DNA of 4,631 nucleotides, taken from positions 1 through 4,631 of the IMG/VR virus record IMGVR_UViG_2675903650_000013; one strand, 5' to 3'. The position numbers and the translations under genes are program-made. Source of the DNA: a virus. Lineage: Duplodnaviria > Heunggongvirae > Uroviricota > Caudoviricetes. Each line of letters opens with the position of its first letter. Position 1 is the stretch's first letter. This document shows, piece after piece, positions 1 through 4,631 of the stretch. The notes under the pieces are model-generated. The model ran no database searches and was not told the origin of the DNA. It saw nothing but the letters and a program-made list of their open reading frames with translations.

Positions 1-126
1 CGACATAATCTGAATCTGAGACAACATCTGACAAGGCTGGGACGGAAGTCACTGTCGTTCTCAAAATCGGTGGAGCTGCATGACAAGGTCATCGGGCATT
101 ATCTGAACATAAAACACTATCAGTAA
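1..126 (+). CDS. 3' end of an upstream gene (5' part outside window), hypothetical protein
   Basis: Frame 1 is the only frame open from the window edge: 41 sense codons ([41 protein letters not shown]) ending at TAA 124-126. All three minus-strand frames contain stops here. G+C is intermediate, unlike the AT-rich gene downstream. No motif recognised; about a 1-in-7 chance of such an open stretch at random. Confidence 0.3.
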
Positions 127-164
127 GTTGGAGTCATTACCTTATTTGTTTATTAGGATTTTTG

Positions 165-2297
165 ATGGAACTGTTACAGGAACACGGGGCGATACTTAAA
201 GTTGTAATCATGCCTACTACTGGGGAACAAACCATAATCCAAGGTTTCGATACTGGCCTCCTCAACCCAGAGATATCCAACATTCTTTTTTTATTGGCCA
301 AAACACCAAAAGAAATTAGTGAGATTTTTGTCAATGAAAATGATAACTTTCAGCCTACTCTAAGCGGGCTAAATCCTATTTTTTTAATATCTAAAGAAAA
401 TCTTGAAAAAATACCAAATATTTATCAAACGCCATTTTACTTAATTTTTTGTGCTAAAGAAGATTTTTCGTATGTTTGTGCTTTAAAAAAACATTTTGCT
501 ATACCACCTATAATTTGTTGCAATTCTAAACGCGCTGATCTACCACTTAATAAGATTAATAGTATATACTCATTTGATAAGGTGCTCTTCTCTCGGTTGA
601 AATTCATTGAGGATAAAATAAGAAAAAATCACAGTGAAAAGAAAATATCAACGAAGTTGAAGCGAAGAGGGGCTTTATTTAATAAATCACCTTGGAGATC
701 GACGCTTAACAATTCAACACTACCCAATGAGTTGTTAATTGAATCACTTGGCTATATGCTATCTCCACCAAAAAGAATTAAAGATGGTAGTAGCAAAAGA
801 GAGTTTATAGAAATAATACTTCATAGCGTTGATGCATACACCGAATGTTTAAAGGAATTAGATATACCACTTCCAACGGAAGTCTTACTTTTTGCTCCGG
901 GTATGCACTCTTTTTTATATGATAAAAATAATGACTTTTATGAGTTAATAACGGAAAATTTATCCACAATTGAGAAAAAATTCCTTATTGATGGAGTGTT
1001 GAGGAATCCTGGCTATTCTGGAATTAGACTTGATATAAATTCAGATAGAAAAGAACTTTTTAAAAGTCCTGCTTTCCGTTACCTCACCTCACTAAGACGC
1101 GCTGAAATGCGATTAACAACAGCTGCGATTACTTTATTTAGCATAAATAAAAAAATCCCAGCAATAAGATTGCCAAATGCAATAAATCATTACTCCAATT
1201 ATTTGAAAAATCTTGAAGATCTTGCAACTTCTTCTGGGATAAATAGTGAAGCATTCATCACTAAATCTAAAGCATTCAATACTGTTATTCGAAGAGCCCT
1301 TGGTTGCAAGTTGAGAACATATATAAGTAAAAACTATAGCGATTTGTCCTTTGTTTGTGATGTACCATTGGATTGGATTAGGTTTAATAACATACCTATA
1401 ATGTTCAGTCATGAGATATCAAGAATAAATGCTACGCCTGGTAACGTTCTTCTACAGAGCGCCTCTGCTTTTCCGCGCGTTTTAGTAAAAGCATCTGAGT
1501 TGAGAAAGGTTTTAGTTATACGTTCTTTTGAGCCTGATGATCACTTAAAGTTCATATTAGAGAACGCAATTGAGATATTTAAAAAACAGATGCCAGATCT
1601 TGATTGCGAGATTATTGATGTTAGATCGAAAGCTGAGTTTATTGATGCTCTAAATCAATATCAAGGTCATGTTCTTGTTATGGATTGTCATGGAAACCAT
1701 GATGGCAATGGGAGTCATGGATGGTTAATAATAGGTGAGGATAAAGTGGACACTTGGAGTTTGAGAAAAATAGCAAGAATTCCTCCTATCGTAATTCTGA
1801 GTGCATGTTTAACATCTGCCCTAAGCGGTTCTCATGCCTCTGTTGCTAATGGCTTCGTTATAAGTGGTGCATTAAGTGTCATCGGAACATTACTGCCAGT
1901 AAATGCGATAGACTCTGCTGTGTTTGTAAGTCGGTTGATCTACCGGTTTTACGAGTTTCCTTCGACGCTATCTACAAATTTTACACATGTTAATGTAAGG
2001 CTTTTTCTTTCTGTTTTTCTTAGGATGTCCTATGCAAGCGATTTAATAAGAGGATTTTTATCTGAAGATTTGATACCGAATAATTCATGGAGGAAAGATG
2101 CAGTTGATATTAACATGTATATAAACATGCTTCACCATGATTGGTATGATTATGTAATTAACAAATTGACGATGTTAACGGGGCTCACGAAAAAAGATGT
2201 ACTTGATTTTATCGATAGAAAATTATTCATAACCGAAACTATGTGCTATAGCCAAATTGGATTTCCAGATGCAATCACAATTAGTCTTAAAGATTGA
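165..2297 (+). CDS. Large CHAT-domain (caspase-like cysteine protease) protein with an uncharacterised N-terminal region of about 440 aa; candidate defence or abortive-infection effector
   Basis: Uninterrupted 2.1-kb ORF. The ORF track starts at TTG 162, but ATG 165 is preceded by AGGA (155-158) at 6-nt spacing, so 165 is the likely start. Stop TGA at 2295-2297. C-terminal motifs read directly: HVLVMDCHGNHDGNGSHGW (His-Gly at 1689-1694 or 1716-1721), IVILSACLTS (Cys codon 1806-1808), SGALSVIGTLLPVNAIDSAVFVSRLIYRFY. This order and spacing match the CHAT / peptidase C14-like fold. No Walker A (GxxxxGK[ST]) anywhere in the protein. Confidence 0.85.
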   Translation: MELLQEHGAILKVVIMPTTGEQTIIQGFDTGLLNPEISNILFLLAKTPKEISEIFVNENDNFQPTLSGLNPIFLISKENLEKIPNIYQTPFYLIFCAKEDFSYVCALKKHFAIPPIICCNSKRADLPLNKINSIYSFDKVLFSRLKFIEDKIRKNHSEKKISTKLKRRGALFNKSPWRSTLNNSTLPNELLIESLGYMLSPPKRIKDGSSKREFIEIILHSVDAYTECLKELDIPLPTEVLLFAPGMHSFLYDKNNDFYELITENLSTIEKKFLIDGVLRNPGYSGIRLDINSDRKELFKSPAFRYLTSLRRAEMRLTTAAITLFSINKKIPAIRLPNAINHYSNYLKNLEDLATSSGINSEAFITKSKAFNTVIRRALGCKLRTYISKNYSDLSFVCDVPLDWIRFNNIPIMFSHEISRINATPGNVLLQSASAFPRVLVKASELRKVLVIRSFEPDDHLKFILENAIEIFKKQMPDLDCEIIDVRSKAEFIDALNQYQGHVLVMDCHGNHDGNGSHGWLIIGEDKVDTWSLRKIARIPPIVILSACLTSALSGSHASVANGFVISGALSVIGTLLPVNAIDSAVFVSRLIYRFYEFPSTLSTNFTHVNVRLFLSVFLRMSYASDLIRGFLSEDLIPNNSWRKDAVDINMYINMLHHDWYDYVINKLTMLTGLTKKDVLDFIDRKLFITETMCYSQIGFPDAITISLKD
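1494..1991 (+). other. CHAT / caspase-like protease domain (approximate boundaries) within CDS 165..2297
   Basis: Region spanning the His-Gly motif (1689-1721), the LSAC catalytic-Cys motif (1797-1808) and the downstream small-residue helix plus FY motif. Boundaries are estimated by eye from motif positions, not from a profile alignment. Confidence 0.65.
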
Positions 2298-2328
2298 CAA
2301 CTGTATGTAATAAATATGGCATACTTCC

Positions 2329-2369
2329 GGCACAGAGCGAATATAACAGATCAGGTTTAGCTCTGTGCC
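2329..2369. repeat. Perfect 10-bp inverted repeat (GGCACAGAGC ... GCTCTGTGCC) with 21-nt spacer, in the spacer between convergent genes; possible bidirectional terminator or protein-binding / junction site
   Basis: Arms at 2329-2338 and 2360-2369 are exact reverse complements. The spacer contains a GATC. No U-tract follows on either strand, so it is not a canonical intrinsic terminator. Confidence 0.4.
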
Positions 2370-2404
2370 ATAGGTGTACCAACTCTCATCTGAGCTAATG
2401 CTCG

Positions 2405-2599
2405 TTACTCAATAACTCCCGCAAATTTGTAAATCTTGCGTGATGCCCATTTATTTGGGCATGATTTAATATCAGGATCTGGAAAGTCTGGCCTGTATTT
2501 CTGGCCAGTTCTCCTGTTTACGCTGTTCCAGCGAAGAACGGTCGATACTGAAACGCCACAGAAGTCGGCGACTTGTTTAGTTGTCATTAAGTTGTTCAT
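2405..2599 (-). CDS. Small HTH DNA-binding protein, excisionase / AlpA-like (64 aa)
   Basis: The track ORF 2405..2665 has a non-ATG start. The first ATG (2597-2599, MNNLMTTKQV...) is preceded by a strong SD, AGGAGGTG (complement of 2605-2612). The motif TTKQVADFCGVSVSTVLRW followed by FPDP...KW resembles the lambda Xis / AlpA-type winged-helix pattern. The start overlaps the upstream stop as TAATG. Confidence 0.7.
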   Translation of the reverse strand: MNNLMTTKQVADFCGVSVSTVLRWNSVNRRTGQKYRPDFPDPDIKSCPNKWASRKIYKFAGVIE

Positions 2600-3120
2600 T
2601 ACTTCACCTCCTGCGGTGGCTCCGGTAGCGGCATCCAGTGGGTTACTTTCGATAACCAACACCAAACATACTGTTTATCGTCCGGCATTCGCTCACTACA
2701 GCTTATCCAACCATCCGGAGTTACCGGAGAGTTGCCCGACAGCTCGTTCAACTTGTAAGTCTGGCTTACAGGTTCGGCACCATGAAGCATGGCGGCGCGG
2801 CAGGCGTTCCAGCCTTCATCAAAGCCGACTATGCCATTATTTAAAGACGGACGAACATCTGGCACCATCGGCACTGGCTTGGCTATATATAGCGGCTGAA
2901 CATACCAGCCCTTTGATAACCAACTGTCAGCAATGTTTTTACTCCGTGTTATTGCCGGAATACCTAAGCCATTGTCTGAATGCAGCCATGCCACCGGTTC
3001 TGCTTCCAGCGATACCAAAGCAATTTCATAAGCACGGCGCTCAATATTGTCTTGCACATCCAGACTGCCTATGCGCTCTTTGATTTCTTTAATCAGTTCT
3101 TTGTCGGTAAATGTGGTCAT
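2599..3120 (-). CDS. Phage protein with C-terminal DUF551-like domain (173 aa)
   Basis: ATG at 3118-3120, stop TAA at 2599-2601. The C-terminus DGWISCSERMPDDKQYVWCWLSKVTHWMPLPEPP matches the DUF551-type motif (GWIS..E.LP ... THWMPLPEPP) common in enterobacterial prophage early regions. The start overlaps the upstream stop as TAATG. GGAGG lies 10 nt upstream. Confidence 0.8.
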   Translation of the reverse strand: MTTFTDKELIKEIKERIGSLDVQDNIERRAYEIALVSLEAEPVAWLHSDNGLGIPAITRSKNIADSWLSKGWYVQPLYIAKPVPMVPDVRPSLNNGIVGFDEGWNACRAAMLHGAEPVSQTYKLNELSGNSPVTPDGWISCSERMPDDKQYVWCWLSKVTHWMPLPEPPQEVK

Positions 3121-3482
3121 TATGCCCCTGCCTCCGGTGCCTTTGGTATTACTGCCCAGTGAGTGATATTGACGTTTTCAAGATCCCCGACCTGAAATGT
3201 CCACTGCCATTCTCCGGTTTCCTTTTGTCCCCAGGTGTACCAGAGAGAACGCCAGCCAATCAGCCAGCCTTCTCCGTTAGCATCAAATAACAGAACACTT
3301 TCATTTGCAGGTGGCAATTCAGCTGACACTGGTATTATTTTGTTTTCCAGTGCCGCACATTTAGCTTCAAGCGCGTCGAATGTACGTACTAGGTACTCAG
3401 CATTTGTTTCGTTCACTTTCAGATCTCGCGGTACACATTTCCCGCGAAGAAACCCTTCCATTTCGAAAACATTCATGCGCAT
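3120..3482 (-). CDS. Phage protein, DUF551-like paralog (120 aa), YfdS-like by position and length
   Basis: ATG at 3480-3482 with GGAG 8 nt upstream (complement of 3491-3494). The C-terminus EGWLIGW...NITHWAVIPKAPE parallels the neighbouring gene's GW...THW..P motif. The start region ATGCGCATGA overlaps the stop of the HD gene. The K-12 symbol yfdS is suspected from memory of a 120-aa CPS-53 protein but is not verified. Confidence 0.8.
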   Translation of the reverse strand: MRMNVFEMEGFLRGKCVPRDLKVNETNAEYLVRTFDALEAKCAALENKIIPVSAELPPANESVLLFDANGEGWLIGWRSLWYTWGQKETGEWQWTFQVGDLENVNITHWAVIPKAPEAGA

Positions 3483-4009
3483 TTGCGTAACTCCGATAAC
3501 TCGTTAAAACGTTCCATAAACATCCCGTAGGCATGACCTGGCGACAGTGGAATAACTTTGAACATCTCTGTTGCCGGGATACCTTCCAATACAGGCCAGA
3601 AAGAGCCATCATCAAGTCCGAGATCGCGGCGTTCGGTTGCCAGCATAATGAGATCGGCATATTTCACGGGCGTACTCATAACTGGGGGTAATCCGTATTT
3701 CTCACGGATTACGGAGTCTATTTTTTCTTCCATTTGTTTATAGTCAGGAAGAAGGCGTTTCAGTGGTGCGGGAATGTCCTGGCAATACGCTTCTGTTGCA
3801 TCATGCATTAACGCTTCAAAAGCAAATTCCTGCGGCACCAGCTGGCTGCAAAGAACCGCATGTTGGGCGACGCTGTAGAAGTGCGAAAGATGACCGGCAA
3901 AGCGACAGATATTTGAAAGGGAAACCGCGATATCGTTAATATCGATGTCGTCTTTATTTATCCTGTCATAATAAAAATGCTTCCCGGAAAAAGTTTTAAT
4001 AAATGACAT
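3473..4009 (-). CDS. yfdR: HD-domain phosphohydrolase, prophage YfdR-like (178 aa)
   Basis: The track ORF starts at GTG 4034-4036. The ATG at 4007-4009 (MSFIKTFSGKHFYY...) has GGAG 6 nt upstream (GGAGAACAAAATG), so 4009 is the likely start. HD metal-binding pattern: H in VAQHAVL, HD in EALMHDATEAY, downstream D. Length and start match my recollection of E. coli K-12 CPS-53 YfdR; confirm by BLAST. Confidence 0.8.
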   Translation of the reverse strand: MSFIKTFSGKHFYYDRINKDDIDINDIAVSLSNICRFAGHLSHFYSVAQHAVLCSQLVPQEFAFEALMHDATEAYCQDIPAPLKRLLPDYKQMEEKIDSVIREKYGLPPVMSTPVKYADLIMLATERRDLGLDDGSFWPVLEGIPATEMFKVIPLSPGHAYGMFMERFNELSELRKCA

Positions 4010-4102
4010 TTTGTTCTCCACGTATATGCGCTGCACCGCGCTGAATTCTGGTAAAAAGAATCCCTCACCATCCGGCGATTATTGAGTAAATTACGTTTCC
4101 AT

Positions 4103-4124
4103 AAATGCCCCCGCAGGGGCATTT
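4103..4124. other. GC-rich hairpin: 9-bp stem AAATGCCCC / GGGGCATTT, 4-nt loop, in the 127-bp intergenic region; possible weak terminator, RNA stability element or processing site
   Basis: Arms 4103-4111 and 4116-4124 are perfect reverse complements. It begins 12 nt downstream of the stop of the minus-strand ORF 4137..4595. No U-tract follows on either strand. Confidence 0.4.
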
Positions 4125-4136
4125 GCAGTAATGAAA

Positions 4137-4595
4137 TCAGGCGGTGAAAGTACCAATAAAGGTTTCTACTTTGCTGTCCTTGAATTTCTCAACAAGCAGA
4201 TCACGAAATTCGTTAGCCATTTCTTCCTGCACCGCCTCCAGCTGTATAATGCGCAGAACCAGTACCGGACGATCGCCAGTGATAATGCTGAGGCGTAATT
4301 TAAACGGACGTTCTTTCAGACCTTCAAACGGAATGCATTTAAATTCAAATGCCACTGGCATAATGTCTTTGGTCTTCGCTTCGACAGACTCCATCAGGGA
4401 GCGTTTGCCGCTGAAGTCATTATCTTCAAAATCAGCGGTCTGGTTTGCTTCAATCGTGATTTTACGGACCGCCGCAGCCGCTTTTGTTGCCTGAATGGTG
4501 TCACCATTAGCATCAAAGCCCACAAGGTAGTCGGCCCAGTCTTCAATCCATTCTGCCAGTGATTTCTGGGAGTTACGCTCGCCATTAACAGACAA
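4137..4595 (-). CDS. Hypothetical prophage protein (up to 152 aa); start codon ambiguous, possibly TTG-initiated or an N-terminally disrupted remnant
   Basis: The translation looks protein-like throughout (e.g. ...[45 protein letters not shown]...). The frame opens just after an in-frame TGA (4608-4610). The first possible start is TTG 4593-4595 with no SD; the first ATG is 4392-4394, also without SD. No domain recognised. Confidence 0.45.
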
Positions 4596-4631
4596 CAGAG
4601 CAGAGTGTCACGAACGGTGCAATAGTGATCC

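Follow-up and report, generated by a model that had tools for sequence, protein, structure and literature searches.

How does a defence protein encoded by a single gene perceive an infecting phage and control the protease that it carries? This question is raised by a 4,631-nucleotide (nt) stretch of Caudoviricetes DNA (IMG/VR record IMGVR_UViG_2675903650_000013, positions 1 to 4,631; the whole stretch is called the window below), in which one plus-strand open reading frame (ORF), at 162/165..2297, encodes a protein of 710 amino acids (aa). Its 5' part, bases 165-1490 or aa 1-442, had been flagged in an initial annotation as an N-terminal region with no recognisable motif and as a possible novel sensor or regulatory domain of a CHAT protease. 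ATG165 is the likely start codon because homologues begin at MELLQ, and an AGGA is located 8 nt upstream of it.

The protein is BovA, the single component of Borvo

A PADLOC search matched the protein to the BovA (Borvo) model PDLC03831 with an E value of 2.6e-240 and 797.8 bits, residues 4-709 falling on model positions 3-715 of 720. By sequence, the gene is bovA, the sole gene of the already catalogued Borvo anti-phage system, and the protein is therefore not new; its trigger and phenotype are published. The system itself is known, and only the N-terminal domain is uncharacterised. The N-terminal 395 aa alone scored 283 bits against model positions 3-397, the other half scored 497 bits, and a PADLOC search with these 395 residues matched no defence family other than BovA. 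In PHROGs the protein fell into family 34827, whose function is unannotated, with no other PHROG match, and Pfam found CHAT alone in the full protein, as a partial match over aa 488-592 (26.6 bits). As in Borvo, the window protein carries a CHAT protease with an intact His/Cys dyad, and H509, G510 and C548 were invariant in a full-length alignment of 150 sequences (the window protein and 149 proteins of ~650-800 aa).

165..2297, plus strand: bovA coding sequence (710 aa and stop codon), identified by its ORF, the PADLOC BovA model match, the exact protein in records and its low GC content
1689..1691, plus strand: codon of the catalytic His509 (DCHG motif), 100% conserved in the 150 aligned full-length sequences; codon checked
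1806..1808, plus strand: codon of the catalytic Cys548 (LSAC motif), 100% conserved; codon checked; aligns to the catalytic-Cys region of Csx29

Borvo and BovA reportedly go back to Millman et al. 2022, with the tested allele coming from E. coli 403116, and the literature describes the system as validated by experiment. The study of its trigger (10.1101/2022.08.27.505566) found that Borvo of E. coli 403116 protects E. coli MG1655 by abortive infection, that phages T5, SECphi4 and SECphi18 escape through DNA polymerase variants with missense changes in the proofreading cleft (T13, E91 and D176 are escape positions in SECphi4, and I63, F223 and T320 in T5), and that expression of the wild-type phage DNA polymerase is toxic only in the presence of Borvo. 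Whether recognition is direct, through a complex or through the outcome of the polymerase-DNA interaction was left open in that study. The published abortive-infection phenotype and polymerase trigger belong to the 403116 allele, with which the window protein shares the family model end to end, the single-gene organisation, the host species and the CHAT dyad. No family-level difference was detectable between the two; the window gene lies in a prophage fragment with an IS1 element 22 bp upstream of its start. Elsewhere the mechanism of Borvo is still termed poorly understood (PMC11348598), or Borvo is listed just as a CHAT-protease system (PMC10952713, PMC13645617), and we found no description of the N-terminal region of BovA in the literature.

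The N-terminal region is a conserved, folded module without a known relative

The initial claim that this region lacks recognisable motifs was borne out. In aa 1-440, a regular-expression scan detected neither a Walker A motif, strict or loose, nor a Walker B motif, and nothing that passed convincingly for a nuclease motif, and the whole protein contained neither GxxxxGK[ST], nor a loose variant of it, nor hhhhD[DE], and had no AAA/NACHT match in Pfam, which sets it apart from STAND/P-loop NTPases of the Avs-like kind. A helix-turn-helix (HTH) motif was absent from the N-terminal region, as were the acidic pocket, the phospho-acceptor Asp and the Pfam Response_reg match of a response-regulator receiver (REC) domain. 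Pfam searches with the N-terminal region alone and with 35 diverse homologues gave no consistent match, NCBIfam returned nothing meaningful for the protein, and searches of PDB chain sequences, by phmmer with the single sequence and by profile, gave no match to the region. The housekeeping-domain match that the initial annotation had named as speaking against its proposal did not appear.

When 1.84 billion representatives were searched exhaustively with a profile of the N-terminal 445 residues, 470 cluster representatives matched at E ≤ 1e-3, of which 303 also passed E ≤ 1e-10; among the 150 matches listed, almost all were 700-790 aa long and matched over the whole profile. Word-indexed searches recovered only ~35 clusters, all of ~700-715 aa with CHAT, from Enterobacterales and Pseudomonas, and a profile of aa 1-300 searched in this way returned one fragment only, its candidate list being saturated. 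By the near-uniform length of the listed matches and the invariant dyad in the alignment, the N-terminal region is a defining and obligatory part of the protease family and not a lineage-specific appendage. One candidate for a stand-alone N-terminal protein (P0090, 429 aa) was rejected as a bovA gene cut by an insertion sequence (IS) of the IS3 family, and the remaining short N-terminal matches were assumed to be fragments.

Within the region, Q26, G27, P48, G196, P245, Y284, R311, E314 and R335-L336-P337 were kept in 86-100% of the 150 aligned sequences, as were D399, P401, W404, P411, S419 and T424-N427 further on. Mean pairwise identity was 0.19 over aa 1-160, 0.21 over aa 161-300, 0.25 over aa 301-398, 0.40 over aa 399-445 and 0.44 in the catalytic core, with aa 1-300 evolving at roughly double the rate of the protease core. 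Homologues about 28% identical to the E. coli allele occur in Pseudomonas or Vibrio. These 300 residues are the most variable part of the protein, the C-terminal helical tail (aa 606-710) varies too, and the loops at aa 55-68 and 290-304 are hypervariable and of low model confidence in the enterobacterial clade.

A full-length AlphaFold2 model (21 sequences) reached a mean predicted local distance difference test score (pLDDT) of 81 and a predicted template modelling score (pTM) of 0.84, and aa 1-445 modelled alone (35 diverse sequences) gave a confident fold with a pLDDT of 86 and a pTM of 0.89. Conservation across hundreds of clusters together with this confident folding showed the region to be more than a random or disordered extension. 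From the models, aa 1-~392 are predicted to be a family-specific three-part module, made up of two alpha/beta subdomains (N1 and N2) and a basic helical subdomain (N3).

186..635, plus strand: N1, predicted first alpha/beta subdomain (aa ~8-157), with AlphaFold2 strands at 11-16, 72-76, 92-95 and 116-118 alternating with helices
636..680, plus strand: basic linker between N1 and N2 (aa 158-172, EKKISTKLKRRGALF), of lower model confidence (pLDDT 70-75)
681..1064, plus strand: N2, predicted second alpha/beta subdomain (aa 173-300), from the AlphaFold2 model and conservation
1065..1340, plus strand: N3, predicted helical subdomain (aa 301-392; helices 302-329, 338-357, 362-379 and 381-390), from the AlphaFold2 model

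N1 is the fastest-evolving part and carries a conserved FQGF-type motif (IQGF, aa 25-28), P48 and D138. Around the linker, the net charge of aa 146-172 is +7 in the window protein against a family mean of +1.7. Conserved loops follow the strands of N2, namely an HGVTxPNE-type loop (NNSTLPNE, aa 182-189), G196, P245 and RNPxYSG (aa 280-286), and its loop at aa 285-304 is hypervariable; the loops at aa 182-189, 245 and 280-286 may form a pocket. N3 is consistently basic (net charge +10 here, +5.8 as the family mean) and conserves R311 (89%), E314 (97%) and R335 (99%) along with a PAIRLPNxxN motif at aa 332-341.

Foldseek comparison of the N-terminal model with the viral predictions in BFVD gave a best E value of 0.23 with TM ≤ 0.18. 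CheY/REC, flavodoxin-like and CWB2 (SlpA/Cwp) folds resembled the module with low scores and 4-16% identity, covering one or two of its three subdomains, and neither a phospho-acceptor nor any other family motif of these folds was seen in it. This resemblance is a generic three-layer alpha/beta likeness and not membership. The N-terminal region is a real, conserved and well-folded module without a known relative.

The protease begins near residue 393

Structure comparison identified Csx29, SAVED-CHAT, separase and gingipains as the closest relatives of the C-terminal half of BovA, and about 300 aligned residues fit aa ~393-710.

1341..2294, plus strand: CHAT (caspase-like) protease module (aa ~393-710), which takes in the C-terminal helical tail, placed by about 300 aligned residues
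1359..1457, plus strand: most conserved stretch in the flagged span, DVPLDW...PIMFSHEISRINATPGNVLLQ (aa 399-431), assigned to the protease module and not to the putative sensor

Conservation pointed to the same boundary, as aa 399-445 are about as conserved as the catalytic core, with D399, P401, W404, P411, S419, T424, P425, G426 and N427 being 92-100% conserved among the 150 full-length sequences. In the homologue P0097, the Pfam CHAT alignment places profile position 63 at residue 457, so that the profile would start near residue 395. With a protease module starting at ~aa 393, the flagged span overshoots into the protease by about 45-50 aa (nt 1341-1490); its description as the N-terminal region holds for aa 1-~392, and the remainder belongs to the protease module.

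No conserved partner gene accompanies bovA

The sensor had been placed initially either in the N-terminal region or in a partner outside the window. We considered 19 loci from species-representative genomes of Vibrio, Aliivibrio, Photobacterium, Thalassotalea, Pseudomonas, Stutzerimonas, Methylomonas, Herbaspirillum, Janthinobacterium, a Verrucomicrobiales metagenome-assembled genome (MAG) and others. ORF clustering across these loci found no shared gene family except the bovA homologue and hence no conserved partner; the neighbours varied by locus and included both genes of defence type (SMC-like ATPases, a DndB-like protein, a NERD-kinase-helicase giant, DUF4238) and housekeeping genes. The absence of a shared neighbour fits the single-gene definition of Borvo. 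Without a partner gene, sensing, regulation and killing must reside in the BovA polypeptide or in universal host components, so that of the two placements the external partner dropped out and BovA itself was left for sensing.

The N-terminal module as a candidate sensor and autoinhibitor

To our knowledge, all characterised CHAT defence proteases are kept inactive by a non-catalytic, signal-receiving region (TPR repeats with Cas7-11 in Csx29, SAVED with cA3). By analogy, the N-terminal module of BovA probably controls the attached cell-killing protease. By elimination and by the same analogy, we put at roughly 60% the probability that aa 1-~392 are a built-in combined sensor and autoinhibitory module of BovA. 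This role is suggested because known CHAT defence proteases use an appended or partner sensor, and because the module always accompanies the protease, forms one confident body with it in the model and evolves fast in its outer parts. The fast evolution of aa 1-300 and the hypervariable loops at aa 55-68 and 290-304 form the pattern expected of a recognition module and were counted for the sensor role. Of the sensor or regulatory domain proposed initially, the structured module is upheld as genuine and as invariably fused to an active CHAT protease, while the sensor role itself is reached by elimination.

The known relatives of the protease half differ from BovA in what is attached to it. In Csx29/TPR-CHAT of the type III-E CRISPR Craspase (PDB 7y9x, 7y83, 7zoq), N-terminal TPR repeats dock on Cas7-11 and activation requires target RNA binding by this partner, whereas BovA has an alpha/beta and helical module. 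Sequence similarity between the two is limited to the catalytic Cys region (E = 0.019), the NCBIfam Csx29 model scored 14 bits against a cut-off of 300 and matched the protease part only, and BovA had no TPR matches or periodicity and no CRISPR genes nearby. In SAVED-CHAT (PDB 8tl0), whose protease half is related in structure to that of BovA, the SAVED sensor binds cA3 from a CRISPR or CBASS cyclase; Pfam and PDB searches gave no SAVED match to the N-terminal region of BovA, and no cyclase was shared or nearby at the loci examined. Separase (PDB 9hvy, 7nj0, 5u1t, 5fc2) is eukaryotic, has a HEAT/TPR-like helical N-terminus and is inhibited by securin or Cdk1-cyclin B, and aa 1-392 of BovA showed no sequence or profile similarity to it.

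In the mechanism that we propose, the N-terminal module would pack on the protease in the uninfected cell and hold it inactive. Upon infection, the phage DNA polymerase would be perceived via this module, be it through its proofreading-exonuclease region, through the polymerase complex or through a product of its action on DNA. The His509/Cys548 dyad would then be freed to cleave cellular targets, and growth would halt before phage progeny form. A more specific version holds that aa 1-~392 represent a new class of immune sensor, without a structural relative in the PDB or among viral predictions, which recognises unrelated family-A polymerases of phages by their exonuclease cleft, or else a product (nucleotide or DNA) of this exonuclease, and allosterically unlocks the protease in the same chain; we advance this version tentatively and rate its chances somewhat below even.

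Several points weigh against the sensor role. It is assigned to the module by elimination, and sensing could equally involve the varying C-terminal helical tail (aa 606-710) or a host factor. The faster evolution of aa 1-300 may merely reflect weaker constraint, and direct versus indirect triggering of Borvo was left unsettled by the trigger study (10.1101/2022.08.27.505566). Moreover, the native upstream region is replaced by IS1 in the window, and the expression of bovA in this genome is uncertain.

It is unlikely that the module serves mainly as a scaffold, oligomerisation or substrate-recruitment domain, with sensing carried out by CHAT, the C-terminal tail or an infection-altered host factor. 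Large non-catalytic N-terminal regions do position substrates or inhibitors in separase and gingipains, the closest structural relatives of the protease half, the best-conserved motifs of the module (R311/E314 and PAIRLPN, aa 332-341) adjoin the protease and resemble an interface and not variable recognition residues, and the pTM of 0.84 for the full model points to a single rigid body. However, there is no conserved partner or host-specific neighbour, Borvo functions in E. coli MG1655 with one phage protein as its trigger, and a most variable outer part such as aa 1-300 is unusual in a pure scaffold. Quite improbable, in our estimate, is a ligand-activated single chain with no dedicated signal synthase, in which N1 and N2 would bind a small molecule or nucleic acid released by the polymerase 3'-5' exonuclease, such as deoxynucleoside monophosphates (dNMPs) or single-stranded DNA (ssDNA) ends. 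The exonuclease residues struck by escape mutations bind catalytic metal or ssDNA, the T5 and SECphi4/18 polymerases in which they lie share no clear sequence homology, and other caspase-like defence proteases are nucleotide-activated (8tl0; 10.1101/2024.10.24.620036, the latter TIR-activated). The predicted Rossmann/flavodoxin-like folds of N1 and N2, with conserved loops right after beta strands (HGVTxPNE, P245, RNPxYSG), and the consistently basic N3 would suit such a ligand, but BovA has no recognisable nucleotide-binding motif, and the family-motif residue H182 is replaced by N in the clade of the window protein.

The N-terminal region might also contain a degenerate pseudo-caspase, derived from a duplicated protease domain like the pseudo-protease domain of separase, and regulate the active domain through pseudo-dimerisation. 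Although the predicted alpha/beta three-layer folds of N1 and N2 would agree with this origin, it is very improbable, considering that N1, N2 and N3 aligned to the CHAT block in hhalign with a best probability of 4.7% and that aa ~393-710 already account for the ~300 aligned residues. When the N1, N2, N3, CHAT and tail blocks were each compared with all the others in hhalign, no probability exceeded 4.7%, and internal duplication was rejected.

Genomic setting of bovA in the window

Over most of its length bovA has a GC content of 29-36%, against 45-51% in the prophage sequence to its right. Window bases 142-4605 are 97-99% identical to lambdoid E. coli prophages and to phages cdtI and Ayreon, and in cdtI the bovA orthologue stands alone between the integrase and excisionase genes. 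Accessory genes, morons among them, typically occupy such a site, and bovA, low in GC and flanked by int and xis in a lambdoid prophage, is read from this context as a moron and not as an ordinary phage structural or replication gene, the alternative that the initial annotation had kept in view. At ≥99.4% identity, bovA was present in 32 of 5,426 complete E. coli genomes and was chromosomal in every case, while the exact 710-aa protein is recorded on 67 contigs and belongs to a 508-member E. coli cluster.

1-142: right end of IS1 (3' end of the IS1 transposase gene and terminal inverted repeat ending ...GGAGTCATTACC at base 142)

The junction between this IS1 end and the prophage lies 22 bp before the bovA ATG. 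At the same position, phage cdtI has ~110 bp of native upstream sequence with a TTGCGGTATAAT-like -10 region, followed by the integrase gene. To judge from this comparison, IS1 has replaced the native promoter region and the int side in the window, and bovA expression here may therefore depend on read-out from IS1.

To the right of bovA, all on the minus strand, lie genes for an excisionase-like HTH protein, two DUF551 proteins, a YfdR-type 5'-deoxynucleotidase and a truncated YfdQ/DUF2303 protein. The two DUF551-family genes are adjacent (2599-3120 and 3120-3482), and the first matches DUF551 through a C-terminal stretch only; since this gene is annotated longer in cdtI (621 nt), the start of the window ORF may lie upstream of ATG3120. 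The YfdR-type HD-domain 5'-deoxynucleotidase is encoded at 3473-4036, ~1.2 kb from bovA; it draws attention since the part of phage polymerases to which the Borvo trigger maps is the exonuclease that releases dNMPs. A functional link between the two genes is unlikely because the YfdR gene sits in a conserved early region of many lambdoid phages without bovA. Stx2c phages are one bovA-less example and match the window only from base 2349.

The homology to cdtI-type prophages ends at base 4605, within the yfdQ/DUF2303 gene, whose ORF at 4137-4595 covers Pfam positions 120-269 of the 269 of DUF2303 only. The last ~30 bases of the window (4596-4631 region) have matches in 277 E. coli genomes, on chromosomes and plasmids and sometimes beside ISEc8, and the right terminus is probably the end of another mobile element. 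Taken by its two ends, the window appears as a 4.46-kb prophage fragment between repeated elements.

Inactivated copies of bovA were encountered repeatedly. An IS600 insertion interrupts the gene in one E. coli O121, and three E. coli genomes match 2,132 instead of 2,133 bases with a split coding sequence annotated, suggesting a 1-base deletion. Split or interrupted copies were also present in a Pseudomonas genome and in a gammaproteobacterial MAG, and an IS3-family insertion occurred in metagenomic contigs. Such recurrent inactivation would be expected if an abortive-infection protease is costly to carry.

Implications for Borvo

The workings of the N-terminal module are an already recognised gap, and the window represents a rediscovery, another copy of a catalogued system. 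Its analysis narrows the search space, in that BovA has no partner gene and carries a conserved, confidently folded module of ~390 residues that is found only with the CHAT protease and is unlike solved structures. The invariant Q26, G27, P48, G196, Y284, R311, E314 and R335 and the hypervariable loops at aa 55-68 and 290-304 are candidate residues within it. A Borvo-like system of Streptococcus thermophilus, which protects against Vansinderenvirus phages, is annotated as two adjacent BovA-type genes (PMC12322248); if its split falls at the boundary between the N-terminal module and CHAT, it would be natural evidence that the modules are separable. Few bacterial defences are built around a protease of the caspase/separase type; Borvo is one, and it is the only one of them reported to respond to phage DNA polymerase.

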